A stretch of 64,000 nucleotides of DNA from the IMG/VR virus record IMGVR_UViG_3300009068_000023. The stretch is one strand, 5' to 3'. Made by a program: the position numbers and the translations under genes. The DNA comes from a virus. Positions 14,176-35,574 of the stretch are shown here, piece after piece (the first letter of the stretch is position 1; each line of letters begins with the position of its first letter). Below the pieces are notes generated by a model. It saw nothing but the letters and a program-made list of their open reading frames with translations, was not told the DNA's origin and did no database searches.

Positions 14176-16605
14176 ATGGCTGCAAATACTCAAGACTTTA
14201 GAGTTAAAAACGGTATTGTTGTTAATAATACTGCAACTATTGGAAATACTGTAAGTATATCTGGTAATGTAACTATTAACGGAAAGTCACTTATCATAGA
14301 TAATCCAACAGGGCTATCTATCAACGCCACAGGTCGTTCAGTCTTAGGAAACTCAGTAACCGTTTCTAAAGGTAATCTTACTGTAAGTAATGGTGCCTTC
14401 AGTGTAACGTCGGCCAATGCAACACAATCTACAGTCTTCACAGTAAACACAGAGACAGTAACAGTATCAGGGAATCTTACTGTTACTGGTATTGCAACAT
14501 TCCAATCAGCCCAAAGACTAGAGATTGGTACAGGAGACATTCTTCTCTATTCTGCTCTTACTGGCGCTCCGGCAGGTAATGCCTCTATCACAGTAAACCG
14601 CGGTACTAGTCCAGATGTTTATATTCTATGGGATGAAACTACTAGTACCTGGAAGTTTACTAACGACGGCACATACTTCTTTCCTATACGCACATACAGT
14701 GATCTAGTTTATTCGTTTGATACTTCTACTACTATGAGCACTGCTCCAGTAAGTGGAAGATTACGTCTTAACAATGCTAACTATTCTCTTGCTACTATTG
14801 TATCTTTCAGCTCTAGTGAGTTTGGAGGTAATAGTACTTCTAATATTTGGAGTGCTGTTGGAAGTAGTAGTAGTGCTAATAAAGCCCTTCTGTATATTAG
14901 ATCAAGTGAAAATACTAATGAATTTGCTGTCTACAGAATAACTAGTGCTGCAGACACAAGTGTAACTGGCGCAATTAAATTTAACATTACATATTTGGGT
15001 GGAGTTACTTCAGGCCTTACATCGTTAGAAAATGTAACTGTGCAAGTCTCTCTATCAGGCGATAAAGGTGAAGTAGGGTCAAAGGGCGATAAAGGTGATA
15101 TAGGTGTTACCGGGGCAAAAGGTGACAAGGGTGATACCGGCACAGCCGGCTCAAAAGGTGATAAAGGTGAGGTAGGTACTAAAGGTGACAAAGGCGATAA
15201 GGGCGATATAGGAACTACTGGTGGTAAAGGTGACAAGGGAGATACAGGCTCCGCAGGAAGAGAAGCTGGTATACCTTACACATTTAGTGTATCAACAACT
15301 GAAAGTGCTTCTCAACCTCCTATAGGTGGAGCTATTTTTAACTCCGCTACATTAGGATCGGTAACGTCTATTACTGTAAGAAAGGTTGACGGTAATATTA
15401 ACGACAGTAATAATTTGTTTAATGCGTTTGGTAGCTATGGCAATACTACTCTTAAAGGTTTGCTTACTGTACGTAATACAGCTAATACATCACAGACAGC
15501 ACTATTTAACGTTAGCAGCATATCAGAAGGTAGTCAAGCAACAAACAAATTATTCACAGTTTCAAATATTAATAACGGGTATACTGCAGTATTCCAGGAT
15601 ACCTCATCCCTACTATTTACATTTACTCCTAACGGGTTGGGTAGTAAAGGGGATACTGGTACGACTGGTACGGCCGGTTCCAAAGGTGATAAAGGCGACC
15701 AGGGGGCTAAAGGCGACAAAGGAGACCTAGGTTCTACTGGCACCAAGGGTGACAAAGGTGATCAGGGTGCTAAAGGTGATAAGGGAGACGCTGGGTCTAA
15801 AGGTGACTCAGGAACCAGCGGGCTTACTGCTGGTATAAACTATCTGTTTGATACAGGTACAACAGAATCCGTATCAGCTCCAGGTATTGGTTCACTTATT
15901 TTTAATAGCGCAACTCCTTCAAGTGTTACTGCAATTACCGTAAGAAATATAGACAATACTGGTGCTAACAATCAGCTCTTAATTAGTAATTACAATAACC
16001 TAGGCAATACTACGTTTAAGGGTTATCTTGAAATTACTAATATTGCTAATACTTCTCAAACCCTATTATATTCAGTAAGCAGCACTGCAGCAGGTAGCCA
16101 GGCTTATAATTCTAAATTTAATGTAACTAATATTACTGGCAGCTATAATTCACCATTTTTAACTGGTGCTAATCTTGCAGTACAATTTTCCGGAACTGGA
16201 TTGAGTATTAAGGGCGATAATGGTACTACCGGTGCAAAAGGTGACAAGGGAGATGCATTCACTACCCTTACAGCTTACACCGAAACAGTTAATACAGCTA
16301 CAGTCTCCACATCAACCTATAATATAGATTTAAGTCTATCCAATATCTTTAATTTAACTCTTGCTACTAGTGTAACGTTTACATTTACTAACCCACCAAC
16401 GGTAGGGTTTACAAAACCAGTAACAGTTATCTTAAAACAAGATGGTACTGGTTCAAGAACGGCATCATTTACAGGTGCTAAGTATACTGATGCAGTTAGC
16501 CCGGTGCTAACTACAACTGCTAATAGGTCTGATGTTCTTACATTCTTTACATTAGATGGTGGAACATCATATTTTGGTACTTTTGCTATGGCCAACGTCG
16601 CTTAA
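14176..16605 (+). CDS. Collagen-like tail fibre protein (GDK repeats separated by duplicated globular domains)
   Basis: Two long Gly-X-Y tracts (about 15058-15258 and 15640-15822) plus a short one. Duplicated AGI.Y.F...TTES domain. C-terminal LKQDGTGSRT...DVLTF domain common in fibres. Confidence 0.75.
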   Translation: MAANTQDFRVKNGIVVNNTATIGNTVSISGNVTINGKSLIIDNPTGLSINATGRSVLGNSVTVSKGNLTVSNGAFSVTSANATQSTVFTVNTETVTVSGNLTVTGIATFQSAQRLEIGTGDILLYSALTGAPAGNASITVNRGTSPDVYILWDETTSTWKFTNDGTYFFPIRTYSDLVYSFDTSTTMSTAPVSGRLRLNNANYSLATIVSFSSSEFGGNSTSNIWSAVGSSSSANKALLYIRSSENTNEFAVYRITSAADTSVTGAIKFNITYLGGVTSGLTSLENVTVQVSLSGDKGEVGSKGDKGDIGVTGAKGDKGDTGTAGSKGDKGEVGTKGDKGDKGDIGTTGGKGDKGDTGSAGREAGIPYTFSVSTTESASQPPIGGAIFNSATLGSVTSITVRKVDGNINDSNNLFNAFGSYGNTTLKGLLTVRNTANTSQTALFNVSSISEGSQATNKLFTVSNINNGYTAVFQDTSSLLFTFTPNGLGSKGDTGTTGTAGSKGDKGDQGAKGDKGDLGSTGTKGDKGDQGAKGDKGDAGSKGDSGTSGLTAGINYLFDTGTTESVSAPGIGSLIFNSATPSSVTAITVRNIDNTGANNQLLISNYNNLGNTTFKGYLEITNIANTSQTLLYSVSSTAAGSQAYNSKFNVTNITGSYNSPFLTGANLAVQFSGTGLSIKGDNGTTGAKGDKGDAFTTLTAYTETVNTATVSTSTYNIDLSLSNIFNLTLATSVTFTFTNPPTVGFTKPVTVILKQDGTGSRTASFTGAKYTDAVSPVLTTTANRSDVLTFFTLDGGTSYFGTFAMANVA

Positions 16606-16618
16606 GGAGGAAGGTAAA

Positions 16619-16942
16619 ATGGCTGTCGTAAAAATTCACGAAATTATTTTATATACTTGTGATTCAGTTAATTCGCTAGATGGACACGATCTTGCCGCAT
16701 GGTTAGATCATACAGATATCAAGTATGTTAGAATGCATTATAATAATACAGCAGTTTTAGATACAGTAATAAACAATCTTAACACGTGGTGGAAAGATAA
16801 ACAACTAACTGCTAGTTCCTGGCCATTCGTGACCTACAAAGAGGAGCATGACGATGGCAGACCTTCATACGCACTTACATCAAACTTTATTGAAGGTTTA
16901 CAGAACGTTAAAGATCAATTACCTGCTTTAGTGGCATTATAA
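16619..16942 (+). CDS. Small glutaredoxin/thioredoxin-fold-like protein lacking CXXC
   Basis: Strong SD AAGGAGG before ATG 16619. Pattern IILYT...WL....IKY...WPFV...FIEG follows Grx topology. Confidence 0.45.
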   Translation: MAVVKIHEIILYTCDSVNSLDGHDLAAWLDHTDIKYVRMHYNNTAVLDTVINNLNTWWKDKQLTASSWPFVTYKEEHDDGRPSYALTSNFIEGLQNVKDQLPALVAL

Positions 16943-16943
16943 A

Positions 16944-18518
16944 ATGCCTTTAGGTTTAAGAACAACACTCCGCCGAACTCTAGTTAACGCTGGATCAATT
17001 ACCTTAAACTCTGGTACAGGCAATCTTACATTACCTTTTGGGGTTGTAAGTATAAGTGGCACAGGTAGAGGAGGGGCAGGTACTGCAGGTACTGGCGGCA
17101 CAGGGGGCACAGCAGGCACAGCCGGTTCAGCAGGTAATCCTGGTAGTGCAGGTAACCAAGGCAACCCTGGTAATAATGGTTCGGGGGGTCCAGGCGGACC
17201 TGGAGGCCCTGCTGGAAATCCAGGTACTGCAGGCAACGCAGGAAATCCAGGGAATGCTGGTGGCGGCGGTGCTGGAGGTGCTGCAGCAAGCTCATCTACT
17301 AATTTGCAATATATGTCAGGTGGTTATGCGTATTACTATCAAATAGACTCTAAGGGTCGACCTGTAATAAACGGGTGGGGTAAAGCTGGAGAAACTTCTA
17401 ACCCAGGCCCTGGCGTATCTACAACCCCATTTAAGTGGCCATATAGTGACGGCGGGCCTGGTCTACCTGGAACAGCAGGCAACCCAGGCAGCGATGGGTC
17501 CGGCGCCGGCGCCGGTGGTGCTGGTGGTGCAGGTTCAAGTGGTGGTAGTGGTACTGCTGGCACACCAGGCTCAGCAGGTAATGGTGCTGGATCAGGAGGG
17601 CTAGGTAATGATGGCTCTCCAGGTAATTCTGGTACTTCGGGTAATTCAACCACGTTTAGCAATTATACTTTTCCTGGCACTTCTGGAAATAGTGGCACTA
17701 AAGGTAGCAAGGGTACTGATGGCACTGCTGGAAATAATGGTACTGGTGGTAACGGAGGTACAGCGGGATCTGCTGGTAACCCAGGAAATTCAGGGTCATC
17801 TGGCAACCCAGGTAACAATGGGACAGGAGGTTCCGGAGGGTCAGCAGGAACAGGGGGTGCTGGTGGTGGCGGTGGATATGGATATGTTTTTGGTAGTACT
17901 ACGGGCCTTTTTGGTGGGGCTGGTGGCGCCGGTGGTAGCGCAGACCCTATAGTAGGATCATCATATAGTGGCGGACCAGGTAATGCGGGAGTTTCTACAG
18001 CTACACCAGGTACCGGACAGGTCGTTGCCGGTAACGGTGGTACTGCATATGGGTTAGCTACTTTTGGTGCTGGTGCTATACGAAACGGTAATGGAAACTC
18101 TACAGGAGGTAGCGGCACACCGGCTAATTATACATGGGGTGGTGGGTCGGGATCAGGTGGAGCAGCTAGATGGGTAAATACTAATTCTAAAGCTGCTGGT
18201 GGTGGCGGTGGCGGTGGGGGCGCTGCATCAGCTAATCCAATTTCTGGTAATCCAGGAAATTCTGGTAATCCAGGTAATACAGGGAGTAGCGGAAATTCCG
18301 GTTCCGGTGCTAATCCAGGCAATCCTGGTAATAGCGGAAACCCTGGAGTTGCTGGTAGCGCTGGCATCCCTGGTACTAAAGGGGCTGATGGTACGATAAG
18401 TAGTGTTACCACTTCAAATTGGTCAGGTAAATTTAATTTAAAGCAGAATGTTCCTTACTCAGTGGGTAGTGGTCCGGGCGGCGCCGGTCAAATAACTATT
18501 ACATGGACTAGACAATGA
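16944..18518 (+). CDS. Glycine-rich (G-X-X, GNP/GTA/GSA) putative adhesin, polyglycine-II type
   Basis: Mostly Gly-X-X triplets with aromatic-rich inserts. Termini LTLPFGVVSI...GRGG and GGAGQITITW resemble glycine-rich adhesin domains. Confidence 0.65.
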   Translation: MPLGLRTTLRRTLVNAGSITLNSGTGNLTLPFGVVSISGTGRGGAGTAGTGGTGGTAGTAGSAGNPGSAGNQGNPGNNGSGGPGGPGGPAGNPGTAGNAGNPGNAGGGGAGGAAASSSTNLQYMSGGYAYYYQIDSKGRPVINGWGKAGETSNPGPGVSTTPFKWPYSDGGPGLPGTAGNPGSDGSGAGAGGAGGAGSSGGSGTAGTPGSAGNGAGSGGLGNDGSPGNSGTSGNSTTFSNYTFPGTSGNSGTKGSKGTDGTAGNNGTGGNGGTAGSAGNPGNSGSSGNPGNNGTGGSGGSAGTGGAGGGGGYGYVFGSTTGLFGGAGGAGGSADPIVGSSYSGGPGNAGVSTATPGTGQVVAGNGGTAYGLATFGAGAIRNGNGNSTGGSGTPANYTWGGGSGSGGAARWVNTNSKAAGGGGGGGGAASANPISGNPGNSGNPGNTGSSGNSGSGANPGNPGNSGNPGVAGSAGIPGTKGADGTISSVTTSNWSGKFNLKQNVPYSVGSGPGGAGQITITWTRQ

Positions 18519-18778
18519 ATTATACGTTCACATATAAAATTATAAAAGCAGATGTTACTTCAGGTAATATGCTTGTTAAGTACACCCCGCTTGATGGTGA
18601 ATTAACTGCGATTACTCTTAACATCAGTGTTGTTTTTGATGAAAACAACAATCCTATTCCTTTGGAGCAATTAATAGAAATGTATGCACCACAGGCTCAA
18701 TGGGCTGCTCAAGCATATATCAAAGATAATTATGAAGATTTAATTAATAAAACTGGAAATATAACCCCTACTCTGTGA
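18515..18778 (+). CDS. Hypothetical protein
   Basis: 87-aa ORF with ATGA overlap to the upstream gene. Confidence 0.65.
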   Translation: MNYTFTYKIIKADVTSGNMLVKYTPLDGELTAITLNISVVFDENNNPIPLEQLIEMYAPQAQWAAQAYIKDNYEDLINKTGNITPTL

Positions 18779-18785
18779 GATTTTT

Positions 18786-19367
18786 ATGAATGATTTTATT
18801 GGTGTATATGATGATGTGGTAACCCCAGAATACTGTGATAGTCTTATAAACTATTTTAAATGGTGTAAGGATAATAATAGGACTTGGAATAGGGATGAAT
18901 GTAGTACCCTGTCCAAAGAGGATGTTTCTACCACTCTTAATCCTATGAAGCAGACCGAAATTAATTTTAGTTATGATAATTTAGGGGGGTTTATAGCTGA
19001 ATTTAATGAAGTATTTTGGAAAAATAGCTATAAACAGTATACTACAAAGTATGATATTCTTAATACGTTTAATAATCATACTATTTATTCTTATAAATTA
19101 CAAGAAACAGAACCGTCTCAAGGGTATCATGTGTGGCATAGCGAGCAAGGATCGCTAGAATATAGTAGAAGAATAGCAGCGTACATTTTGTATTTGAATG
19201 ATGTTATTGAAGGTGGGGAAACAGAATTTTTATATTTAAGTAAGCGTATTGCAGCGAAAAGAGGAAGACTAGTTATATTCCCTGCAGGTTATACCCACAC
19301 CCATCGTGGCAATCCCCCCTTATCTGGCACAAAGTATATTATGACAGGATGGGTGGAGTATTCATAA
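18786..19367 (+). CDS. 2OG-Fe(II) oxygenase (prolyl-4-hydroxylase-like superfamily)
   Basis: Motifs HVWHSE, YLNDVIEGGETEF and FPAGYTHTHRGNPPLSGTKYIMTGW. Confidence 0.9.
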   Translation: MNDFIGVYDDVVTPEYCDSLINYFKWCKDNNRTWNRDECSTLSKEDVSTTLNPMKQTEINFSYDNLGGFIAEFNEVFWKNSYKQYTTKYDILNTFNNHTIYSYKLQETEPSQGYHVWHSEQGSLEYSRRIAAYILYLNDVIEGGETEFLYLSKRIAAKRGRLVIFPAGYTHTHRGNPPLSGTKYIMTGWVEYS

Positions 19368-19966
19368 TGTCTCTTTATAGCTTCTTACCGGCATCAGCTA
19401 GAAAAACTGCATATGAGCCATTTATTACCTGGAGAGAAGCTTTTGATGCAAGACAGGTCTCAGATATAATTAACATGTGCGAAAAGCTACCTGCATCAGA
19501 TGGTATTGTGGGAGGGCTTAAAGGTGATGTTAATACTCAAATTAGAGTCTCAAAAACTGCGTGGTTAGACAATTCAGAGCCTCATCAGTGGATATATGAA
19601 AAAATGGCTTTTTTGGCCAGAAGTATTAATAGTGATTTCTACAGATTTAATCTCTACGGGTTTGTAGAAGATATGCAGTATACGATATATACTGGAGATG
19701 AGGAAAGCCATTATACCTGGCATATAGACGCTGGTAAAAATACTGATTGTGCTAGAAAGCTTTCTTTGGTATTACAGCTTTCAGATCCTGAAGAGTACGA
19801 AGGTGGCGATTTAGAGATATTAACTGGTCCAGAACCTCTTACAGTGGATAAAGAAAAAGGAATGCTGGCTGCCTTTCCTAGTTATGTCCTGCATAGAGTG
19901 ACGCCAGTAACAAAAGGAATAAGAAGATCTTTGGTAGTATGGGTTGCAGGACCTGACTTTATATAG
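19367..19966 (+). CDS. 2OG-Fe(II) oxygenase (PKHD/P4H-like)
   Basis: Motifs YTWHID, KLSLVLQLSDPEEYEGGDL and FPSYVLHRVTPVTKGIRRSLVVW. Start placed at the TAATG overlap (19367). Confidence 0.9.
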   Translation: MSLYSFLPASARKTAYEPFITWREAFDARQVSDIINMCEKLPASDGIVGGLKGDVNTQIRVSKTAWLDNSEPHQWIYEKMAFLARSINSDFYRFNLYGFVEDMQYTIYTGDEESHYTWHIDAGKNTDCARKLSLVLQLSDPEEYEGGDLEILTGPEPLTVDKEKGMLAAFPSYVLHRVTPVTKGIRRSLVVWVAGPDFI

Positions 19967-19969
19967 TCT

Positions 19970-19977
19970 TATAAATA
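19970..19977 (+). promoter_or_regulatory. T4-type late promoter TATAAATA
   Basis: Exact consensus, intergenic, about 22 nt before ATG 20000. gp55 is present in the window. Confidence 0.8.
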
Positions 19978-20329: not shown

Positions 20330-20330
20330 T

Positions 20331-20567: not shown

Positions 20568-22637
20568 ATGTCAAATACAATCATTCAAATCAGACGCAGT
20601 ACTGAAACTGCGGTACCTAGTAGTTTACAGCCAGGTGAATTAGCCTATACCTCGAATGGTGAGGTACTATTTATTGGTAGTGTGAAAGGCACAGATACCG
20701 CTAACGTTGTTGCGATTGGGGGCATTAGAAACCCAGGTACTCTTACTGCAAATCAGGCCCTAGTAGCCAACTCTACTTCTGGTATTGATAAGGTAATCGT
20801 TGCTAACTTAGTAGCTACGCAAGTATATGCTAACGGTGCGCATGGTACAAATGGTCAACTTCTAGTATCTGGCGGCTCGGGTAATGTACACTGGATTAAT
20901 GCAAGCGCTCTCTCAACCAGCGCTGGTGGTTCTAATTCACAAGTTCAGTTTAATAATAATAGTCTATTCGCCGGTGACGTAGATTTTACCTTTGATACGG
21001 CTACTAATAAATTAAGTGTTGGTGGTGGGGTACTTGCTGGCAGCGGCGGCTCATTTGTAGTAGGCTCTAATGCAGCAGTAATTAATTCAACTGGTGTATT
21101 TACAACCGGCACAGTTAATACAGACATCCTAAGCGTTGCTAATACCACTGATAGTTCAAACACTACTACTGGTGCTGTAACTATAGCGGGTGGCTTAGGA
21201 GTTGCAAAGAGAGTTGCTGCTAAAGAAGTTTATGTTGGTAATAATGACACATATACTACAGTTAACGGCACAGTAATTACTACTGGTAACGTTCTTGCTA
21301 CTAACACTGTTAATGCAGCAGTATTAAGTATTGGGTCTAACGTAGTAGCTAATTCAACAGGGCTGTATACTACAGGTAGCGTTATTGCTACTAACACTGT
21401 TAACGCAGCGATATTAAGTGTTGGTTCAAATGTAGTAGCTAACACGTCAGGATTATTTACTACTGGTGTAGTAAATGCATCTTCGCTCACAGTTGGATCA
21501 TACATTTCTGCAAATACAACCCAGTTGTTTATTGCGAATGGTGTTACTCTTTCGGTTAATGGGTCGGTAGGTACAGCTAACCAAGTACTAGCATCGAATG
21601 GCTCTGGATTGTATTGGAGAGGGGTTGATGCTGATATTACCGAAGTTGTCGCCGGGGATGGTCTTACAGGCGGCGGTTTAAGCGGAAGCGTAACACTTGA
21701 TGTAGGGGCAGGTAACGGTATATCGGTTAGCGCTAATGCCGTTTCAGTTAATGCTAACGACGGTATAGTTGCGAACACCTCTGGTGTTTTTGTCAAAGCA
21801 GGCACTGGTGTAACGGTTAATTCCACTGGTGTACACATTGGCCAGGATGTTGGCACTACAAGCAATGTTACTTTTAACTCTATAGATGTTACAGGCAACG
21901 TTGTACTGGGTAGTAATTCTTCTGATGTTGTATCTATTAATGGGCTAGTTAACACCAACATAGTACCTTCAGCTAACGTTACTTATAACCTTGGCTCATC
22001 TGCATTAAATTATTCAACAGTATATGCAAATAATATACTTGCTAAGTATGCAACGTTTGATCATAACGTAACTATCGCTGGTAACTTATCTGTTACTGGT
22101 ACCCTCGTTACAATTAACGTTTCAACCTTATCGGTATCTGATTCTCTAATTCAACTAGCAGCTAACAACACATCGTCAGACGTATTAGATCTAGGTTTTT
22201 ACGGTAATTATAACAACACCGGTGGTGCGTCTCAACACGCTGGTCTGTTTAGAGATGCATCGGACGGGGTATTCAAGCTATTTGATAGTCTGACTGCCGC
22301 ACCAGGTACAACTGTCGATACATCGAATGCTACGTTTAATATATCGACCTTAGTTGCTTACCTTTCATCTGGCGGGTTAACCACTAATTCAACATCAGTA
22401 GCACTAACTGCTAATGGTACTGTAAATGTAGCGATAGTAGCTAATACATTAAGCCTATCAACCGCATTAGCAGGTAATAGCGGTGGTACAGGTCTTAACA
22501 GCTATACAGCAGAAGATATACTAGTTGCTAATTCAACTAACGGATTTAGAAAATTAGGGATAGGCACCAAAGGGTATGTTTTACAATCTAATGGTACAGC
22601 ATTGGTATATGCTTCATTAGATGGCGGCAGTTTCTAA
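20568..22637 (+). CDS. Tail fibre-like protein
   Basis: N-terminal IQIRRST..PSSLQPGELAY anchor, beta repeats, C-terminal LDGGSF. Confidence 0.7.
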   Translation: MSNTIIQIRRSTETAVPSSLQPGELAYTSNGEVLFIGSVKGTDTANVVAIGGIRNPGTLTANQALVANSTSGIDKVIVANLVATQVYANGAHGTNGQLLVSGGSGNVHWINASALSTSAGGSNSQVQFNNNSLFAGDVDFTFDTATNKLSVGGGVLAGSGGSFVVGSNAAVINSTGVFTTGTVNTDILSVANTTDSSNTTTGAVTIAGGLGVAKRVAAKEVYVGNNDTYTTVNGTVITTGNVLATNTVNAAVLSIGSNVVANSTGLYTTGSVIATNTVNAAILSVGSNVVANTSGLFTTGVVNASSLTVGSYISANTTQLFIANGVTLSVNGSVGTANQVLASNGSGLYWRGVDADITEVVAGDGLTGGGLSGSVTLDVGAGNGISVSANAVSVNANDGIVANTSGVFVKAGTGVTVNSTGVHIGQDVGTTSNVTFNSIDVTGNVVLGSNSSDVVSINGLVNTNIVPSANVTYNLGSSALNYSTVYANNILAKYATFDHNVTIAGNLSVTGTLVTINVSTLSVSDSLIQLAANNTSSDVLDLGFYGNYNNTGGASQHAGLFRDASDGVFKLFDSLTAAPGTTVDTSNATFNISTLVAYLSSGGLTTNSTSVALTANGTVNVAIVANTLSLSTALAGNSGGTGLNSYTAEDILVANSTNGFRKLGIGTKGYVLQSNGTALVYASLDGGSF

Positions 22638-22639: not shown

Positions 22640-22831
22640 ATGGAAGTTGATTTTGTTAATGCCTACATAAACAGGCAGAAGCAGTATATTGAAGATTTAA
22701 CAAATAAACTTATACTGGCGGAAGCTAAGATCGTTACTTTAGAAAAAACAATTAACGATCTTAGCAATAAAATAGTTGATTATGAAAGCAAGACGGTGAA
22801 GCCAAGTGAAAATAGTCGTACTAAATCTTGA
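22640..22831 (+). CDS. Small coiled-coil protein
   Basis: 63 aa with a heptad pattern; overlaps the next gene's start. Confidence 0.6.
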   Translation: MEVDFVNAYINRQKQYIEDLTNKLILAEAKIVTLEKTINDLSNKIVDYESKTVKPSENSRTKS

Positions 22832-24770
22832 TACAAGAAAAGACAGATTAGATTTTATTTCAGAGCAGCTTAGCGAGTACGAATGGACCAGATTACCGGC
22901 CATAAACGGACACTCGTTAAGCTTATCTAATATAAGAGCATTAGGGTTTAAGCCTTACCTTAGGTGGCAGGACCCAATGCTACATCGACACGCAACTATA
23001 ACAGAAGTTGCAACCAGCATATCGCATTATAACGCGTGGATGCTTTGTGCTGAGCTCAATCACAACCTATTGATTCTTGAAGATGATTCAAGACTAGTAG
23101 GGCATATTGACTCAGAAGAAATCGATAGACTTCTTGAAACACAAGATGTAGTATACCTGGATCACAAAGAGATGTTTCCAGGTCATGTGCAGAATATAGA
23201 TGATAAATTTATACGGCCATATTACCCTTATTGGAATAATGCTTACGCTATAAGCCCAAGGCTTGCTAAGAAGCTAGTTAATTCCAAGTTTAAGGAAAAC
23301 ATTATACCGGTTGATGAGTTCTTTCCGCTTATCAGTGGTGTTAACTATCTACACACCTGTCTGACAGATAAGCCAGGCATACTTAATAATTTTACTGCAT
23401 TAGTAGATATTTTTAAAGATCTTATACCTACTAACCCTATAGCCTATAAAACTAGTATATTTAATCAAGTATCTAGATCGGTACTTGGCTCTGATATTGA
23501 AAGTGGAGAATCCATAATGACTCAAGAAGCAATCGTTGTCACCGTTGCTACAGACTCTGAAAAATACAAATACCTTAGTAAGTCAAGTGCGGCTAAAGAG
23601 GTACCGATTATAAACATCGGCGATGGTGTAGAATGGAAGGGTGGTACAATGCAAGGACCGGGCGGTGGTCAAAAGATTAATTTAGTTAAAGATTATCTTA
23701 AGAGCATTGACGGTAATAAGATTGTATTGTTCTGCGATGGTCATGATGTCATCATTAATGATTCATTAGAGACTATCGTGAATAGATTCTTAGGGTTTGA
23801 ATGTGACGTGCTTTTTGCAGCTGAAAAGATCTGCTGGCCTGATCGTTCCATGGAACAGTATTTTACTGAATCACATACCGCATACAAGTATCTAAACAGT
23901 GGAGTATACATTGGATACAAGGACTCTATCCTTTCCATCATAGATGATTATATACAGGATTCGGATGATGATCAACTATTTTTACAGAAGAAGTATGTAG
24001 AGAATAAGAGTAATAATAAGGTTAATATCAAATTAGATTATGAGAATTATATCTTTCAATGCTTAAGCTCTATTGAAGATGATTTAGTATTAAAGCCAAC
24101 AAAGCAATTTGTTAATATTGCTACTAGATGCTGCCCATGCATCTTACATGGTAATGGCGGGCCAAATGATAAGATTGTTTTTAATAACATCTTCCAACAG
24201 CTCTATCCAGATATTATAGAATTTATTGATGCTACAGAGCTTACAGTAGTAGCACCAGACATCCTAGAGATGGATTTTCTTACCCCAGAGATGTGTAAGA
24301 AAATTATAGACATGGCTGAAGCACATGGTAAATGGGAATCGATGTACGGTGATAAGTTTCCAGGACAAGAATTAAGAATCAGAGAGTTTAGTATGGAGCT
24401 CTGGAATACTTTAGAAAAGCATTTTAAAGAGTCGATCAACCCGGTGATAGAAAAGTATTGGTTTCCGCTATTAATGAATGGTTTGCGGGATGCTTTCATT
24501 ATTAAGTATTCACCAGAAACCCAAAAGAGTCTTAACTGTCACCATGATGCCTCTTTAGTTTCAGGAAACGTAAAGCTGAATGATGATTACGAAGGCGGAG
24601 ATACTTATTTTTATAGGCAAAACTTCTCTAATATAAATACTCAAATAGGTAAGATTATTTTATGGCCTGGCCAAGTGACACATGGACACGAAGGTCGAGA
24701 AGTAACCAAAGGCACTAAATATAATCTAGTAATATGGACAAGTAGAAAGCAGGGCGACATTAATTATTAA
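22806..24770 (+). CDS. Three-domain fusion: GT25 (COLGALT-like) + PLOD/LH3-type glycosyltransferase + 2OG-Fe(II) lysyl-hydroxylase-like domain
   Basis: GT25 motifs: NLDTRKDR, SHYNAW, ILEDD, YW..AYAIS, IPVDEF. PLOD GT motifs: TVAT, GGGQK, FCDGHDV, FAAEKICWP, YLNSGVYIG, DDDQLF, HGNG. Hydroxylase motifs: FIIKYSPETQKSLNCHHDAS, DYEGG, PGQVTHGHEG, GTKY. GTG start. Confidence 0.85.
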   Translation: MKIVVLNLDTRKDRLDFISEQLSEYEWTRLPAINGHSLSLSNIRALGFKPYLRWQDPMLHRHATITEVATSISHYNAWMLCAELNHNLLILEDDSRLVGHIDSEEIDRLLETQDVVYLDHKEMFPGHVQNIDDKFIRPYYPYWNNAYAISPRLAKKLVNSKFKENIIPVDEFFPLISGVNYLHTCLTDKPGILNNFTALVDIFKDLIPTNPIAYKTSIFNQVSRSVLGSDIESGESIMTQEAIVVTVATDSEKYKYLSKSSAAKEVPIINIGDGVEWKGGTMQGPGGGQKINLVKDYLKSIDGNKIVLFCDGHDVIINDSLETIVNRFLGFECDVLFAAEKICWPDRSMEQYFTESHTAYKYLNSGVYIGYKDSILSIIDDYIQDSDDDQLFLQKKYVENKSNNKVNIKLDYENYIFQCLSSIEDDLVLKPTKQFVNIATRCCPCILHGNGGPNDKIVFNNIFQQLYPDIIEFIDATELTVVAPDILEMDFLTPEMCKKIIDMAEAHGKWESMYGDKFPGQELRIREFSMELWNTLEKHFKESINPVIEKYWFPLLMNGLRDAFIIKYSPETQKSLNCHHDASLVSGNVKLNDDYEGGDTYFYRQNFSNINTQIGKIILWPGQVTHGHEGREVTKGTKYNLVIWTSRKQGDINY

Positions 24771-24799: not shown

Positions 24800-27816
<3,017 letters not shown>

Positions 27817-27817
<1 letters not shown>

Positions 27818-29112
27818 TGTCATTTGGAGTATTTCAGTTTAGAAGAGGTAGCGCCTCAGATTGGTCAACTGCTAATACAGTACTAGCAGCCGGTGAGCTT
27901 GGTATAGAAACAAATACTAGCCTGTTTAAAATAGGTGATGGTTCTACTGCCTGGACAAATCTACCTTATGGCGGTATACAAGGTATTAAAGGTGATAAGG
28001 GTTACGGAGACAAAGGCGAAAAAGGTGATGTAGGGCCTAAAGGTGATATCGGCAACAAAGGCGACAAAGGTGATACCGGTAATAAGGGTGACACCGGCCT
28101 AACCGCAACTCTTCTCTATGAAGAGTTTACAGCTACTAGCGATCAAACTACTTTCTATCCTTCTACATTCACAGCAAACACCGGCGGTGTACGAGTATTT
28201 TATAATGGTGTTTTATTAAGTAATACTGAGTACACATCAAACACAACTGCAATTGTTCTTTCTTCAGGTGCAACTGCTAGTGACTTGGTTGCTGTATACG
28301 GTTACGATCGAATAAGCCCTAAAGGTGATAAGGGTGAGACACCTGCTGTAAGCAACTTTAATTTTACAGCAGCAAACAATCAATCAGTGTTCTTAATGTC
28401 AGGGATTACCACCCTAGGTAATATATTAGTACACTTAAATGGCATATTCCTTTCTAATACAGAATATACCGCAAACACTTCAAGAGTAACTCTCAACTTA
28501 CCTGCAGCAAATAACGATATACTTGACGTAGTAGTATTTGATAGTGCAGGTGTCAAAGGTGAAAAAGGCAGCAATGCGGCAGGCCCCTGGTTTGAGAATA
28601 TTAGATTTGTTACTACAGACAGCACTATCACAAACACAGCTATTTCATTCACAGAAGGAATAGCGCCTCTACAGGTAAACAACTATACTACAATTACAGT
28701 TGATCGCGCAGCTACTTGGACAGTTGCAGATAATCTAGCAGTAGATTATACTAAAGGCTTACCAAATTATGTTGTAGATAATCTTTCTAATGTATTTGAC
28801 GGGCAGACAAGATCGTTTAAACTGTCATCAAATGGTGTTTCTATAACGCCATTTAACGGTGCAAGCTTAGATTTGTATATAAACGGAACTAAGCAATTGC
28901 CGGCTAGATATATAAATGATTACTACAATTTACCAGAAGTTTCAGTGTTTAGTTCGGGATACTATGTTAATGGGTCTACTTTATATCTGTCCTCAGCGCC
29001 CACATTTGGGACCGCTTTCTATTGCACAGCCAAAGTAGCTGACACTGTGAAAAACTTTAACAATTACCAAAAACAAACACCATTTAAACCATTAAGTATA
29101 ATGCTTGATTAA
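27817..29112 (+). CDS. Collagen-containing fibre protein with Mtd/hyaluronidase-type N-terminal anchor
   Basis: FQFRRGSASDW..AN.VLA.GELGIET....FKIGDG...W..LPY, then a GXK tract and FTA domains. Confidence 0.75.
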
Positions 29113-29121: not shown

Positions 29122-32100
29122 ATGGCAAAACGTGTTATTTTAGATACTCAGTATACATTTACCCCTTCTACAAAGACAATAGTAATCCCTAGAGTCGTTC
29201 TAAGAGAAAGACTATTACTAATTACTAACGTTACTACTAACGCTGTAATTTACAACTTTAGCGATCCAGCACTTACCGCTACAAGCTATACGGTTACGCA
29301 AGGAACGGTTACCACAAACCCAACTACTACAATCGTATTAAATTATAATACCGGTAGTATGTCGGCCACTGATAAGTTGCAGATTGTAGTTGATGAAATT
29401 AGTGAATCATTTATTCCTGACGAGTCTATTATTGACCCAGTAGGTAAGATGAGAATTTCTTCTCCTCAAGCTTTGATTGATACTGACTTTGAATACGGGT
29501 TGCAACCTACAAAGTGGGAAACCCTCTCGCTACTTAACATGCAGCCAAGCTTTTTTGTCAACACACAAACCCCTATTGTAATTACAGATATTCAAGCAAC
29601 AAATGGTTCAACTACGGTTACAGTATCGACAACTACCCCACCTGCGGTTGGCACACCAGTTCTTATTCAAGATAGCTTGTTTACCGGTGGCAACGGGCCT
29701 TTCGTAGTAGATTCAGTATCAGCTGGTACTAATTTCACATATACTGCAAGAACGCCATTTACAGGTTCATCTGGCTCAGTATATAACTCAACATTATCGT
29801 TTGTATTCGCTGGTAGCTTTTATTCAAATGCAAGTATGCCACAAGCAACTGCTATGACTAATAGTGGTGTTGTAGTTACAGTAACTACAACCAACCCTCA
29901 CGGTCTTCAGATAGGCGATGGTATCTATGTAACAGGTTCAACCGCATCATCTAATGCACCTAACGGTACATGGCAGGTTAGTTCGGTACTAAGCAGCACA
30001 TCTTTTAACTTTGTTGTAGTAAATGCGCCATCCGGATCAATTTCCGGTGGCACAATTTACCCCAGACCAGACGGTGTATATCAACATAGAGCATTTGACG
30101 GCGGTGTTCAGTTTACTACAGGCAATCAAGCGCACAATATTCAAACTATTCGTCAAACAAGAAGATACTTTAGATATCAATCTGGCAAAGGCATTCAAGT
30201 TAGTACAGGTACAAGCTTAAAGCCAAACATTAACGTAGATAAGATTACATCGTCTGGAACAGTAGCAACCGTTACTACAAAAGCACCTCACTACATTAGT
30301 TTTGGTACAACTTTTATTATTTCAGGCTGTAATGAAACAGCATATAATGGTACCTTTACAGTAACTTCAGTAGTCAGTGATAACCAATTCACATATAGTA
30401 CATTAACAACCCCCACTGCAACGCCTGCAACTGGTATACCCGCTCTGTCAGTATCTAGCTGGTATGGCGCAACAACCAGAACCGGATTATTCGATTTCCA
30501 GAATGGTGTATTTTTTGAATTTGATGGTCAAACTCTTTACTGTGTAAGAAGAAGCTCAACTACACAATTGTCCGGCTTCTTTAACGTTACTAACGGCTCG
30601 TCAACAGTAACTGGCGCAACCGTTAACGGGGTATCACCTTCACTATCGTCACAACTAGTGCCTGGTGACTTTATAGTTATTAGAGGGATGTCATTCAGAG
30701 TTCTAAATATTGCAAGTGACACCTCTATGACAGTTTCGCCTCCTTATAGAGGAGCAACTCTATCAGGTACGAACGTCTGTATTATTTCTAAGACTATCGA
30801 TACAAGAGTTCCGCAAAACTTATGGAACATTGATAAGATGGACGGTACTGGCCCATCTGGTATGAACCTTGATCTTACTAAGATGCAAATGTTCTATCTT
30901 GACTATAGCTGGTACGGCGCTGGTACAGTAAGATATGGATTCAGAGATACACAAGGTAGAGTAGTTTACGTCCATAGGTTTGTTAACAATAACCAGAATA
31001 CTGAAGCGTACATGCGTTCTGGTAACTTGCCTGCCAGATACGAAACCAATACTATTGCACCATTTACGAATCTTGCAGCAACGTTGGCATCAAGCGCAAC
31101 AACAATGTCGGTTGGTAACACTACTGCATTCCCAACAACTGGTACAGTTTATATTGATAACCCAAGCAATCCTGAGTATGTGTTTTATTCAGGCAAGACA
31201 GCTACAACACTTACCGGTCTTACAAGAGGTAAGGCAGCCACAACCGTAACAATGACAAGAACGAGCGGCAGCTCAACCTTAACATCAACAAACTCAGTAG
31301 CTGGTCTGCAAGTAGGCATGTTAATTTACGGTACAGGTATTCCAAATAATACCTATGTTGCGTCTATTACCACCGGGGCATTTAATACAGTGGTCATGTC
31401 CAGAGCTGCATCAAGCTCAGGCTCCTCTACTTACAGCTTTGCTAATATGGGTAATGCAACGGGAGATGTAACTCATACATTCTCTGCTACTGCTCCTATA
31501 TCAGTGTATCTACATTCACCACAATTCTCACCGACGATTAGCCACTGGGGTACGTCAGTAATTATGGACGGACAGTACGATAACGATAAGTCGTTGCAAT
31601 TTACCTACGGTGAAACAACAACTACCACTGCAATTGCTGGTAACGTTGCTTCAGTAACTATTGGTTCAGGCTCAAATACATTTAGCGTTGTTAATACTAC
31701 ACCGATCTTCCCTGGTATGTTAGTGGCAGGTAGCAATATTCCTTCCGGCGCAATAGTTACAGCCGTGTCCGGCGGCAACCCAAACAACACTATTACAATG
31801 AATAGACAGGGGTCAGGCTCCGGTTCTACAACAGTAACGTACAATAGTGCTGTTGCTCTTGCAACTCTAAGAGTTACGCCTTCAGTTGATTCTGGTGTTA
31901 CTGGTGTACTTGGCTCAAAGGAAATTGTTAACCGTATGCAGCTCACGTTGCAAAACTTGGACGTGCTAGTTAACGGGGTGTTCTTGATTCAGCTAATTCT
32001 AAATGGCGCGCCGATTGCACCAACAACTAGCACAACAACAAGCTATACCGGTGCCACAGCAGCATTAAGCACCTTCGGTCCTATTGCTACTGGTACATCA

Positions 32101-32397
32101 AGTCTTGCCCAGATTGCTGACCATACAGGCCCTGTATATGTCTCAGGCGGTGAAGCGATGTTTAGCTTCTATGCTGTGAACAACGCCGGTTCTACTAACT
32201 ACTCCGTAGCAGCTGCTGCTCTTAACATGCTACGAGATCTAGGTAATAGTATTCTTGGTGGTGGTACAACTAACACACCAGGTGCTGCAGGTGTTTACCC
32301 AGACGGTCCAGATACGCTTACGATTGTTGGTATTAACATCGGTAGCTCGAATGCTCAAATTCAAACACGTCTATCCTGGACAGAAGCACAAGCTTAA
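29122..32397 (+). CDS. Large virion structural protein
   Basis: 1091 aa, Thr/Ser-rich beta domains; motifs IDTDFEYG, QTRRYFRYQSGKG and YSWYGAG; SD GAGGA. Confidence 0.7.
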   Translation: MAKRVILDTQYTFTPSTKTIVIPRVVLRERLLLITNVTTNAVIYNFSDPALTATSYTVTQGTVTTNPTTTIVLNYNTGSMSATDKLQIVVDEISESFIPDESIIDPVGKMRISSPQALIDTDFEYGLQPTKWETLSLLNMQPSFFVNTQTPIVITDIQATNGSTTVTVSTTTPPAVGTPVLIQDSLFTGGNGPFVVDSVSAGTNFTYTARTPFTGSSGSVYNSTLSFVFAGSFYSNASMPQATAMTNSGVVVTVTTTNPHGLQIGDGIYVTGSTASSNAPNGTWQVSSVLSSTSFNFVVVNAPSGSISGGTIYPRPDGVYQHRAFDGGVQFTTGNQAHNIQTIRQTRRYFRYQSGKGIQVSTGTSLKPNINVDKITSSGTVATVTTKAPHYISFGTTFIISGCNETAYNGTFTVTSVVSDNQFTYSTLTTPTATPATGIPALSVSSWYGATTRTGLFDFQNGVFFEFDGQTLYCVRRSSTTQLSGFFNVTNGSSTVTGATVNGVSPSLSSQLVPGDFIVIRGMSFRVLNIASDTSMTVSPPYRGATLSGTNVCIISKTIDTRVPQNLWNIDKMDGTGPSGMNLDLTKMQMFYLDYSWYGAGTVRYGFRDTQGRVVYVHRFVNNNQNTEAYMRSGNLPARYETNTIAPFTNLAATLASSATTMSVGNTTAFPTTGTVYIDNPSNPEYVFYSGKTATTLTGLTRGKAATTVTMTRTSGSSTLTSTNSVAGLQVGMLIYGTGIPNNTYVASITTGAFNTVVMSRAASSSGSSTYSFANMGNATGDVTHTFSATAPISVYLHSPQFSPTISHWGTSVIMDGQYDNDKSLQFTYGETTTTTAIAGNVASVTIGSGSNTFSVVNTTPIFPGMLVAGSNIPSGAIVTAVSGGNPNNTITMNRQGSGSGSTTVTYNSAVALATLRVTPSVDSGVTGVLGSKEIVNRMQLTLQNLDVLVNGVFLIQLILNGAPIAPTTSTTTSYTGATAALSTFGPIATGTSSLAQIADHTGPVYVSGGEAMFSFYAVNNAGSTNYSVAAAALNMLRDLGNSILGGGTTNTPGAAGVYPDGPDTLTIVGINIGSSNAQIQTRLSWTEAQA

Positions 32398-32406
32398 GAG
32401 GATAAT

Positions 32407-32859
32407 ATGGCATCTATTAAACTAAACGGTACCACTTCTAATTCGGTAACTATTTCAGCACCAGACAATCCTAATACTACAGTATATGTGTTGCCGGTGG
32501 CTGATGGATCAAACGGACAGGTACTGACTACCAACGGTGCCGGTTACATGTCATGGACGACAGTAGGGGTAGCAGGCGCTAATACTCAGATACAGTTTAA
32601 TGATAGTGGTGTTAGTAATGGTTCAGCCAACCTAGCATTCTACAAGTCTAATTCAACTATTGCTGTTAATAATGCAGTTATTAATGCGTCTCTAACAGTT
32701 AATACTATCGCAGTAGGCGCTAACATAAATATTAACACGGCTACCGTATCAGTAGGAAACGCCACTAACAACGTGCAGATTAACTCAACCGGAGTTTTCT
32801 TAAGTAACGTTGCATATCCTACAACCACCACTATACTGACTTATAGCTTAGCTTTCTAG
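32407..32859 (+). CDS. Short fibre-like protein
   Basis: LP.ADGSNGQVLTTNG.G..SW and QIQFND motifs; ends TYSLAF. Confidence 0.65.
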   Translation: MASIKLNGTTSNSVTISAPDNPNTTVYVLPVADGSNGQVLTTNGAGYMSWTTVGVAGANTQIQFNDSGVSNGSANLAFYKSNSTIAVNNAVINASLTVNTIAVGANININTATVSVGNATNNVQINSTGVFLSNVAYPTTTTILTYSLAF

Positions 32860-32867
32860 GAAAAAAT

Positions 32868-33314
32868 ATGAAACAATTAACTATCTATAAACCAACGTTT
32901 AGTACTGCTAATAACACATTAGATTTTTCAACACTGCCAAACTTTAAGTTTAGCAAGCTGTATGCTGTTATTAACACCACTCAAAACGTACCTTTGTACA
33001 TTGCAGGCGCACCCAACCTAGGAGCTACAAATCCAGGCGGTGGTCCTCTTGTTACATTAAGTGTTAACACTACAACATACAATCCATCTGATAACCTCAA
33101 CATTTATTATGATGATTTAGATGGATTTGATTCTTTCTCTCAGTATAATGTACGATACTCTAATCAAAAAATTATAGAGGTATTAGAACAATTACTAATA
33201 GAAACGAAAGTGACCAACTTGATCCTTTCAGAAGGATTAAATGGCTCGCCATTTATTACCGAAGTTACACAACTTCGCAAAGATATAAATAGTAACGTAA
33301 CCGATGAAGGTTAA
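32868..33314 (+). CDS. Hypothetical virion protein, paralogous to the N-terminal domain of 29122..32397
   Basis: Shared pattern TF...T...L..I.N.T.N..Y ... L..NT.....D.L.I..D. Confidence 0.6.
   Translation: MKQLTIYKPTFSTANNTLDFSTLPNFKFSKLYAVINTTQNVPLYIAGAPNLGATNPGGGPLVTLSVNTTTYNPSDNLNIYYDDLDGFDSFSQYNVRYSNQKIIEVLEQLLIETKVTNLILSEGLNGSPFITEVTQLRKDINSNVTDEG
33284..33291 (+). promoter_or_regulatory. T4-type late promoter TATAAATA for gene 33340
   Basis: Exact consensus about 48 nt upstream of ATG 33340, inside the 3' end of the previous ORF. Confidence 0.6.
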
Positions 33315-33339
33315 TTTTAACTAAGTAAAGGAGACTCAC

Positions 33340-33969
33340 ATGCTTATTCAAGGACAAGTAGGCCCAATTTCTGCACAATCACTTGGTGCCGGTTCTAACC
33401 CAAACGTACGTCTTGGTCAACAAGGCGATCTTATCGCAACTGAGCTACACGGTCGTTATTATGAGACCAACTATCGTAGAGCTCTTTTCAACGCTGCTTC
33501 GACGGCTGCTGCTACAACCTCGGCTGGTACAACCACATCGTTCACCGGTCTAATGGTTTACAACCCACTTAACAGCCCAGTTAACCTAGTCATCAACAAG
33601 GTTGGCTATGCATTCATCGTTGCCTTCGGTTCTGCCGCTGCTTACGGTGTTATGACTGGCTTCAGCACATCACCAATCGCTACATTCTCGACTTCGAACA
33701 CCTCGACCAAGTCGCAGTATGTTGGTGGTGCTCAAGGTTACGGTGTTGCTTATGCATCAGCCACTCTAACAGCAACCCCAGTCGTTAACACCATCTTCGG
33801 TTCAGGCCTAACTGGTGCTATCACAACAGTCCCATCAGTGCCTCTTCTATATGATCTAGAAGGCAGCGTTATTGTTCCTCCTGGTGGCTACGTTTGCTCG
33901 TACACCACATCAGCATCTGGTGCCAGCGCATTCTTTGGCTCGTTCCAATGGGAAGAAATCCCAGTCTAA
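33340..33969 (+). CDS. Probably abundant virion protein of unknown function
   Basis: SD AAGGAG; codon usage (TTC/AAC/ATC/CGT/GCT) resembling gp23; own promoter and terminator. Confidence 0.7.
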   Translation: MLIQGQVGPISAQSLGAGSNPNVRLGQQGDLIATELHGRYYETNYRRALFNAASTAAATTSAGTTTSFTGLMVYNPLNSPVNLVINKVGYAFIVAFGSAAAYGVMTGFSTSPIATFSTSNTSTKSQYVGGAQGYGVAYASATLTATPVVNTIFGSGLTGAITTVPSVPLLYDLEGSVIVPPGGYVCSYTTSASGASAFFGSFQWEEIPV

Positions 33970-33988
33970 TTTTAGACGGTATTTCAAG

Positions 33989-34021
33989 AAAGAAAGCACC
34001 CTTGAGGTGCTTTCTTTTTTT
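33989..34021 (+). terminator. Rho-independent terminator
   Basis: Stem AAAGAAAGCACC / GGTGCTTTCTTT followed by a T-run. Confidence 0.85.
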
Positions 34022-34022
34022 G

Positions 34023-34030
34023 TATAAATA
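34023..34030 (+). promoter_or_regulatory. T4-type late promoter TATAAATA
   Basis: Exact consensus right after the terminator, upstream of ATG 34058. Confidence 0.8.
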
Positions 34031-34057
34031 GATAGTGTTCCACTATTCTATATCGCC

Positions 34058-34693
34058 ATGGGTAAGACTAGAGACTTCTCAAGACTGCTATCTGAAAATC
34101 TAAACAATAACATCAAAATTGCTAATGCGCAGATGTATATTGGAGACGGTGGCGGCAATGCATACTTAAACTCAACAAGTATTGCAGTATCATCAGTTAA
34201 CGCAACTACGCTTACTGTTACATCCATCTATTCTAATGGATCACTAGGCACATCAGGCCAGGTATTAACATCTAATGGTTCTGGTGCATACTGGTCAAGC
34301 TACACATCTCAGGCGTTAGGATTATTCAGCACAGTACAATTTAATGATGCTGGATACGCCAACGGCGCACAATACGTGTCGTACGACAAACCTACCGGTG
34401 CATTCATAGTCGGTAGTAGCACCGCAAATACAAGAGTAGCTTTTAGCAATGTCAGTCTGAATGGTGACAGTGCAACGCTATTTACTGGCAATGCAACCAT
34501 TACTGGAACCTATAGTTCTAATGGTGTGGTGCTTTCTAATACAGCCTCATCTGGCAACGTAAACATTAATATGAGCGGTGTGCAAATAGGAAACTCAACA
34601 GTTAATTCTCAACTGACGTCTGCAGGGTTATCTGTTAACGGTGGTGCACCACTTAACATAACAACAGTATTAACATACAGCTTGGCTTTTTAA
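34058..34693 (+). CDS. Short fibre-like protein
   Basis: NGSLGTSGQVLTSNGSGAYW and VQFND motifs; ends TYSLAF like 32407..32859. Confidence 0.65.
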   Translation: MGKTRDFSRLLSENLNNNIKIANAQMYIGDGGGNAYLNSTSIAVSSVNATTLTVTSIYSNGSLGTSGQVLTSNGSGAYWSSYTSQALGLFSTVQFNDAGYANGAQYVSYDKPTGAFIVGSSTANTRVAFSNVSLNGDSATLFTGNATITGTYSSNGVVLSNTASSGNVNINMSGVQIGNSTVNSQLTSAGLSVNGGAPLNITTVLTYSLAF

Positions 34694-34704
34694 CAGGTTA
34701 AAAA

Positions 34705-35574
34705 ATGGGCATAATTAGAAACTTAGCAAGTCGTGCATCAGACAGCTTAGTACTAGAAACTACTGTTGCAACAGAAGGCCAGACCTATTTCCCATACTCA
34801 TCTACAAAGAGTAATTTCAATAATTTTTTAATCTATATTAACGGTGTATTGCAATCCAATACTGGTGACTATACTGCAAACTCTCTAGGGGTTACTCTTA
34901 CCCTTGCTGCCAACAGTAGCGATATTATTACCATAGGCATTATAAACAATGTTTTCTCCAAAGGAGAAAAGGGAGAGAAGGTTTCTAGTGCATTATACAC
35001 AGATGCTAACAACACAATAGTTTTCACCAATTCAGACTCAACTGTTTTCCCGGTCACTGGTGTTAAAGGTCAAAAAGGCGATCAAGGCAGCAAAGGTGCA
35101 GATGGCAATGTCTATGCTGCTGGTGCAAAGGGAGATAAGGGTGACAAGGGTGAAGTAGGACCGACTGGTTCAACTGGTAGTACTGGTGCAAAGGGCGATA
35201 AGGGTAGTCAGCTTTACGCCGCAACTTATATAGATGAATTAAATACCATAACATTTACAAATTCTGATCTAACTACATTTTCAGCAGCAGGTATGAAAGG
35301 ACAAAAAGGTGAGACAGGTAATACTGGTAATAATGGAGCAAAAGGAGATGCAGGGGCCATATCATACACAACTAACATAGGGGATGGTACTAACACTTCT
35401 TTTACTATTAATCATAACCTAGCTAAAGCAGATGTGTCAGTGGTAGTTTTTGAGAATGCCACTAATAACCAAGTGTACCCTGATGTATCAGTTACAAACA
35501 ATAATACGTGTGTAGTTAGTTTTGTTATAGCACCTACCTCAAGCCAATATAGAGTCAGAGTTCTAGGGTTCTAA
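34705..35574 (+). CDS. Collagen-containing fibre protein
   Basis: GXK tracts, [12 protein letters not shown] module shared with the 24800 gene, C-terminal GDG...F.I.HNL domain. Confidence 0.7.
   Translation: MGIIRNLASRASDSLVLETTVATEGQTYFPYSSTKSNFNNFLIYINGVLQSNTGDYTANSLGVTLTLAANSSDIITIGIINNVFSKGEKGEKVSSALYTDANNTIVFTNSDSTVFPVTGVKGQKGDQGSKGADGNVYAAGAKGDKGDKGEVGPTGSTGSTGAKGDKGSQLYAATYIDELNTITFTNSDLTTFSAAGMKGQKGETGNTGNNGAKGDAGAISYTTNIGDGTNTSFTINHNLAKADVSVVVFENATNNQVYPDVSVTNNNTCVVSFVIAPTSSQYRVRVLGF

Follow-up and report, generated by a model that had tools for sequence, protein, structure and literature searches.

Lysine-rich collagen-like fibre genes adjoin a gene for a predicted lysine-modifying enzyme

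The 64,000-nucleotide viral DNA of record IMGVR_UViG_3300009068_000023 (below, the window means this whole stretch) is a single plus-strand block of a T4-like myovirus, with homologues of TerL, the gp18 sheath, the gp20 portal, gp22, gp23, UvsW and gp46 and a GC content of about 0.38-0.42. Its fibre module, which spans 10-36 kb, holds four genes with collagen-like Gly-X-Y tracts rich in Lys at the Y position (Y-Lys) and a gene for a 654-aa three-domain protein (22806-24770) that resembles collagen lysine-modifying enzymes. The relationship between these fibres and this enzyme is the subject of the present analysis. The window gp23 is 62-68% identical to gp23 of Stenotrophomonas, Methylophilales, Synechococcus and Sinorhizobium T4-like phages, and a megablast search of the region against isolate phages returned no match.

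The main fibre gene (24800-27817, plus strand, 1005 aa) begins 30 nt past the end of the enzyme gene. It matches Pfam Collagen with 173.5 bits in nine stretches as well as PHROG tail-fibre families, and carries a C-terminal DUF4183. Its tracts (24962-25186, 25265-25525, 25874-26134, 26213-26455, 26903-26956, 27404-27493 and 27698-27733) comprise 130 triplets, 71 with Lys and 29 with Thr at Y, and contain no Pro. An original prediction, made from the letters of this DNA, had singled out tract 24962-25186 as having 25 triplets with 14 Y-Lys, 7 Y-Thr and no Pro, and our recount gave the same numbers. The second gene (14176-16605, plus strand, 809 aa; Collagen 63.3 bits, PHROG tail-fibre families) has tracts at 15058-15264, 15640-15828 and 16213-16257, in which 24 of 49 triplets have Lys at Y and none contains Pro; over its N-terminal 294 aa it is similar to tail-fibre proteins from T4-like phages of Synechococcus. 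A smaller gene (34705-35574, plus strand, 289 aa; Collagen 46.2 bits) carries tracts at 35059-35112, 35122-35211 and 35290-35361 with 11 Y-Lys in 24 triplets. These three genes pass the PF01391 cut-off of 27.2 bits. The fourth (27817-29112, plus strand, 431 aa) fails it with 21.2 bits; by Pfam and PHROG searches it combines an Mtd_N domain, a short tract (27973-28104; 14 triplets, 7 with Y-Lys) and a DUF4183-like region. All four genes thus carry tracts of the type originally described, and they would encode the Pro-free, collagen-like tail-fibre stalks of a T4-like myovirus.

Taken together, the tracts with four or more triplets in the four genes contain 217 triplets, with Lys at Y in 113 (52%), Thr at Y in 46 (21%) and two Pro in total. 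Lys is absent from X (0/217), so that every tract Lys lies in X-Lys-Gly, the substrate geometry of lysyl hydroxylases, and Asp/Glu show the opposite preference (112 at X vs 4 at Y). Outside the tracts of the same proteins, Lys accounts for only 2.3-3.3% of residues; the tract bias is therefore far beyond chance. Among the triplets that were said to dominate, GDK (55), GDT (21), GSK (17) and GQK (9, as many as GAK) do so, whereas GEK (2) and GET (3) are rare.

At the DNA level, the tracts are imperfect tandem repeats (TRF periods of 9-81 nt, 61-86% matches), and the triplets are consequently not fully independent. These repeat periods would be expected if the composition were a by-product of the recent tandem amplification of a few GDK/GDT units instead of site-by-site selection. 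We regard this explanation as barely credible, given that the diverged copies keep Lys strictly at Y (113 vs 0 at X) and that the four genes and 25 of 27 enzyme lineages (see below) all follow this rule with unrelated X residues; amplification as the sole cause was rejected. In a tblastn search of the collagen tracts against isolate phages, in which low-complexity filtering masked the remainder, the sole match was a spacer: the non-collagen segment 25535-25870 of the main fibre gene is similar (35% identity, 4e-10) to a section of the tail fibre in Pelagibacter phage HTVC010P.

A T4-type late-promoter-like motif, TATAAATA, lies on the plus strand at 24632-24639 within the 3' end of the enzyme gene, 160 nt upstream of the main fibre gene. 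All ten copies of the motif in the window are on the plus strand, most of them just upstream of structural genes (gp18, gp22, gp23), and their number in the whole window is not above chance. No terminator-like site was found between the enzyme gene and gene 24800. Together, the motifs and the lack of a terminator between these genes are weakly suggestive of late co-expression.

The enzyme gene predicts two glycosyltransferases and a lysyl hydroxylase in one chain

The 654-aa product of gene 22806-24770 (plus strand) is predicted to consist of a GT25/COLGALT-like domain (approximately residues 1-235), a PLOD-type glycosyltransferase (GT) domain (approximately 238-470) and a lysyl hydroxylase (LH)-like 2-oxoglutarate (2OG)/Fe(II) domain (approximately 478-654), and its AlphaFold (AF2) model has a pLDDT of 90.6. 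The first domain matches PF01755 and, in profile searches of the PDB, the COLGALT1 catalytic domain (1e-38) far better than bacterial GT25 proteins (only 4e-12); Foldseek aligns it to 9evj with a root-mean-square deviation (rmsd) of 3-4. The second scores 194 bits against PF25342 and 3e-50 against the LH3 GT profile, and its model resembles 6wfv (TM 0.86) and mimivirus R699 (rmsd 2.4, 32% identity). The third matches PF13640 weakly, the LH profile of LH3 and mimivirus L230 at 2e-17, and the structure 6ax6 with a TM of 0.76 and an rmsd of 1.9-2.2.

Residue conservation was judged over 85 phage relatives of the enzyme. The GT25 acidic motif Glu92-Asp93-Asp94 is conserved, with Asp93 replaced by Glu in two of the 85. 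In the PLOD-type domain, Trp277 and Trp344 (UDP-stacking Trp / gating Trp), Asp311/Asp314 (DxxD Mn site), the poly-Asp catalytic pair Asp388-Asp389 and His448 are conserved, and the HxD...H iron triad of the LH domain (His579/Asp581/His628) is invariant. This phage and its closest relative share Asp-Gly-His-Asp as the Mn-site motif (23727-23747, residues 311-314), with His instead of Tyr between the two Asp. At the position of LH3 Tyr114, the UDP-stacking residue, 75 of the 85 sequences have Tyr and 8 have Phe. On the strength of motifs and model, the gene product is a credible lysyl hydroxylase with two glycosyltransferases, and the tract Lys, which had been proposed as its matching substrates, all present the expected X-Lys-Gly.

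The enzyme family is large and viral: 803 proteins were found at E<=1e-10, 481 IMG/VR contigs carry it, and it occurs in 11 isolate records, including S-CAM9, S-PRM1, S-8S53/55/56, CRP-6 and the single-cell marine virus record AG-345-L05, as opposed to only seven matches in 185,579 species genomes. In our literature search on PLOD, lysyl hydroxylase or hydroxylysine in phages, we found no description for tailed phages. Two cultured bacteria, Streptomyces kronopolitis (L322) and Kaistia terrae (L323), have chromosomal relatives with 48-49% identity near short Pro-rich collagen-like open reading frames (ORFs); the K. terrae match spans the PLOD-GT and LH domains only. These are possible cellular or prophage versions of the enzyme.

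Lysine at the Y position tracks the enzyme across phages

Following the original prediction, which had suggested comparing the Y-Lys fraction of phage collagens with the presence of a PLOD-like gene, we compared collagens located within 10 kb of the enzyme in dereplicated loci with arbitrary viral collagen loci retrieved by a generic Gly-codon periodicity pattern. Indeed, Y-Lys tracks the enzyme, with a median of 0.30 (interquartile range (IQR) 0.15-0.43, n=52) near the enzyme and 0.016 (IQR 0-0.09, n=117) in the arbitrary collagens (p=8e-16). The difference persisted when the enzymes were clustered at 70% identity: the 27 clusters with a collagen have a median Y-Lys of 0.39, 25 of them reach at least 0.15, and p=8e-13. 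Along the enzyme tree, Y-Lys is retained while the X residue changes by lineage (D, E, P, A, Q, S, N, T). A PLOD-GT domain was found in only 1 of 105 generic-pattern records searched. GC content was rejected as a confounder (rho 0.006 in controls; the Y-Lys difference is present in every GC bin).

The enzyme gene also has a collagen neighbour almost everywhere. A collagen ORF lies within 10 kb in 54 of 68 dereplicated enzyme loci, within 5 kb in 53, and always on the same strand. Of the 14 loci that lack such an ORF, 12 are truncated less than 2 kb before the start of the enzyme gene. In one complete genome with direct terminal repeats, the enzyme-collagen adjacency wraps round the genome ends. 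The T4-like cyanophage P-SSM2, which has no enzyme, carries five Pro-rich collagen fibre genes with about 250 triplets and no Y-Lys at all. The enzyme-free cyanophages S-MbCM7 and Sf-CH1b share homologues of the fibre N terminus but hold no collagen and hence provide no matched composition control. The P-SSM2 fibre genes (L311, 18-27 kb of this Prochlorococcus phage; X=Pro, Y=Pro/Thr/Ala) adjoin a piuC-like 2OG oxygenase annotated as 'ferrochelatase', a label that is probably wrong.

Two further traits had been associated with the enzyme, and neither association held up. Thr at Y is equally frequent in enzyme-linked collagens and controls (0.13 vs 0.15) and is thus a general feature of viral collagens that is independent of the PLOD-like gene. 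Pro at X makes up 15% in enzyme-linked collagens and 19% in controls; the poverty in Pro is a trait of the window lineage and not linked to the enzyme.

Salt bridges could explain much of the bias, and unpaired lysine tracks the enzyme

In the reading we favour, to which we assign a probability of roughly 0.6, the Y-Lys serve both as KGD/KGE salt-bridge residues and as substrates of the enzyme encoded 30 nt upstream. A number of observations weigh against it, some of them in favour of a purely structural origin of the bias, in which KGD/KGE salt bridges fold and stabilise a Pro-free helix and the enzyme modifies few or no sites or acts on another target. Within the window, Y-Lys is followed by Gly-Asp/Glu in 83 of 113 cases (73%) as opposed to 24 of 89 non-Lys triplets (odds ratio 7.5, p=4e-11), there is no Lys-Asp/Glu coupling inside the same triplet in the four genes, and the tract charges balance (115 basic, 116 acidic). 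Lys-Asp salt bridges, which had been named as an alternative reason for the bias, are thus at work, and alone could explain most of it in the window. KGD/KGE is moreover a general folding and stability code that is anomalously frequent in all collagens, with KGD making up 13% of viral collagen triplets (PMC11923368). Across phages, collagens with GDK had been expected to be less common where PLOD-like genes are lacking; overall Y-Lys is indeed far lower there, while eight complete (>=99%) enzyme-free genomes still have Lys-rich collagens of the KGD type, with 27-46% Y-Lys and 92% of those Lys in KG[DE]. Neither a PLOD-GT nor an LH domain was found in these eight genomes by searches that detected the positive controls, so that a GDK collagen as such is no mark of the enzyme.

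Other points on the same side concern the comparison and the enzyme itself. Among enzyme-linked lineages, that of the window ranks low in unpaired Lys (defined below), one enzyme clade adjoins GAQ-type collagens with just 4-13% Lys, and L013 has 2%. Many control contigs are fragments, which often makes the enzyme's "absence" uncertain, and relatedness among loci was controlled only roughly, by clustering. The Arg of LH3 that binds the C5 carboxylate of 2-oxoglutarate (LH3 Arg729, L230 Arg887) corresponds to an invariant Lys638 in the phage enzyme. Prolyl 4-hydroxylases have Lys at their 2-oxoglutarate-binding position, and by analogy with them function is probably kept. Lastly, each of the enzymatic steps proposed below would rest on homology.

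To separate the two roles of Lys, we defined unpaired Y-Lys as Y-Lys that is not followed by Gly-Asp/Glu, expressed as a share of triplets. Its median is 0.176 in enzyme-linked loci (n=57), compared with 0.000 in generic controls (n=96, p=2e-20) and 0.019 in controls selected for three consecutive GxK triplets (n=86, p=4e-11). The enzyme-specific signal is therefore Lys outside KGD/KGE. In the four window genes, 41% of junctions have paired and 15% unpaired Lys, the latter falling to 8% over all window collagens; 5 of 109 generic controls reach the window's unpaired level and one of 109 reaches 52% Y-Lys, that one with an LH fusion. The same association was seen from the collagen side. PF25342 was present in three of five previously untested contigs with unpaired-Lys collagens, which had partly been picked for resemblance to known types. 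Since PF13640 missed known positives as a probe for the LH domain, an LH-domain alignment profile was used in its place, and gave strong matches in 7 of 23 contigs with high unpaired Lys and in none of 26 low-Lys controls (p=0.003). Two of these seven (L153 and L305) carry a different fusion, GT4+GT25+LH-like, of 754 aa (L327 1013-3277) and 739 aa (L328 2017-4236), on contigs whose collagens have Y-Lys fractions of 55% and 32%, respectively. These proteins have apparently exchanged their second sugar transferase, and they represent an architecture-independent repeat of the association between Lys and enzyme.

A purely structural origin leaves three of these results unexplained: the near-constant presence of a collagen neighbour on the same strand as the enzyme gene, the ten-fold excess of Lys outside KGD/KGE over Lys-selected controls, and lineages whose Y-Lys reaches about 80% yet lacks acidic partners. 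For this reason, and despite the pairing statistics, we consider it unlikely as the full account. Glycosylated hydroxylysines of adiponectin and collectins sit in GXKG(E/D) motifs, so that the salt-bridge and substrate roles need not exclude each other. Adiponectin and mannose-binding lectin (MBL) are both modified by LH3 (PMC3510199, PMC4242627). The L051 lineage, which is enzyme-linked and has 82% Y-Lys with nearly no acidic partner, illustrates a further proposal, namely that unmodified Y-Lys gives the fibre a positively charged surface with which it adheres electrostatically to the host envelope. While collagens of this lineage are strongly cationic, the window tracts are charge-neutral, and adhesion leaves the link to a hydroxylase/glycosyltransferase unexplained; we judge it to be highly improbable. 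The dual role that we favour joins two points: sequence statistics show the Lys/Asp register that a Pro-free helix needs, and the same fibre Lys appear to be the only plausible substrates of a conserved and always adjacent hydroxylase/glycosyltransferase.

A putative pathway and its known counterparts

We propose the following working model, in which the physical effect of the salt bridges is taken from published peptide work and the enzymatic steps from homology. Nascent, untrimerised chains would be hydroxylated by the C-terminal domain (His579/Asp581/His628 for Fe; Lys638) to give 5-hydroxylysine. The GT25 domain (Glu92-Asp93-Asp94) would then add a first hexose, which would be Gal by analogy with COLGALT1, although the GT25 domain of mimivirus L230 adds Glc, making the sugar uncertain. 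The PLOD-GT domain (Asp311/Asp314/His448, Trp277, Asp388-Asp389) would add Glc. The triple helix would be zipped by interchain KGD/KGE salt bridges between Lys at Y and Asp/Glu at the next X. The outcome would be fibre stalks decorated with glycans at some share of the 113 sites.

The closest precedent is mimivirus, in which L230 (GT25 + lysyl hydroxylase; PDB 6ax6) hydroxylates and glycosylates collagen Lys in vitro and hydroxylysine is present in virions (PMC9614988), and R699 (PDB 9dyt) is a PLOD-type glucosyltransferase; the virus also has Pro-poor collagens with Lys often at Y (PMC9614988, PMC9546862). Like mimivirus with its collagens L71, R196, R239-R241 and L668/L669, the phage encodes both the enzyme and Pro-poor collagens with Y-Lys, and the enzyme domains match R699 and the LH domain of L230. 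In contrast to mimivirus, the phage joins three catalytic domains (from the N terminus, GT25, PLOD-GT and LH) into a single chain of 654 aa that has no accessory domain; it infects a bacterium, its putative substrates are tailed-phage fibre stalks, and its 2-oxoglutarate residue is Lys and not Arg.

Human LH3 and COLGALT1 associate non-covalently into a complex (PMC11897130). The same three activities on X-Lys-Gly as in human LH3/PLOD3-COLGALT1 (PDB 8zgc, 6fxk, 9evj; substrates procollagen, adiponectin and MBL) are implied for the phage enzyme, which retains the DxxD, Trp, poly-Asp and HxD...H motifs. Unlike the human complex, the phage enzyme fuses the activities and has neither the non-catalytic N-terminal domain of COLGALT1 nor the accessory domain of LH3. 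It would be cytoplasmic instead of residing in the endoplasmic reticulum, and the density of its substrates is far higher (52% of triplets).

Two kinds of bacterial collagen resemble the fibres in composition. Salt-bridged, hydroxyproline-free collagens such as Streptococcus Scl2 (PMC11923368) are likewise Pro-poor and charge-balanced, with a strong excess of Lys(Y)-Gly-Asp/Glu(X); the phage differs in that KG[DE] makes up 41% of junctions, vs 3-13% reported, and in that its fibres adjoin a Lys-modifying enzyme. Bacillus BclA-type exosporium collagens (GPT/GXT, with Thr O-glycosylated) share with the phage the frequent Y-Thr (21%) and DUF4183, which occurs in both settings. In contrast to them, no Thr-glycosylation enzyme was identified in the phage, and Y-Thr shows no link to the PLOD-like gene. 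Iyer et al. 2010 (PMC2938197) predicted that other dioxygenases hydroxylate collagen-like proteins of bacteria.

Other genes of the structural region

The window has a fifth Gly-rich gene, at 16944-18518, which differs from the other four in that its triplets are of the GNP/GTA/GSA type (87 triplets, Y=Pro 16, Y=Lys 3). It precedes two small 2OG oxygenases (region 16944-19966), one of which resembles a collagen prolyl 4-hydroxylase of Bacillus anthracis (3itq/5hv0, 4e-7) and the other PiuC/PKHD hydroxylases. The Pro-at-Y protein beside a prolyl 4-hydroxylase-like gene parallels the Lys collagens beside a lysyl hydroxylase-like gene. Between the oxygenases and the three-domain enzyme lies a 689-aa ORF (20568-22637) that contains a 90-nt tandem repeat at 21277-21467 and has no match in Pfam or PHROG. 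Further downstream in the structural module (36140-38993 and 39006-40361) lie tandem genes that match Vgb_lyase (beta-propeller) weakly, together with a gene for a 451-aa protein that has a methyltransferase domain.

Implications for phage fibres

It is possible, though we put this forward only tentatively, that tailed phages of marine bacteria build fibres with animal-type (glucosyl-galactosyl-)hydroxylysine collagen, with one three-domain enzyme carrying out the modification in the cytoplasm of the bacterium, and that unpaired Y-Lys is the signature of enzyme-dependent collagens. The split between salt-bridged and unpaired Lys is a simple sequence measure that separates structural from enzyme-linked Lys and is applicable to any genome set; if the signature is true, it would allow modification to be predicted from sequence. 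If the fibres are truly hydroxylated and glycosylated, a compact one-chain enzyme, probably compatible with E. coli, would be available together with its natural substrates for the production of modified recombinant collagens. Collagen Lys modification, so far found in animals and mimivirus, would in that case extend to bacteriophages and would constitute a new kind of post-translational decoration on phage receptor-binding fibres.

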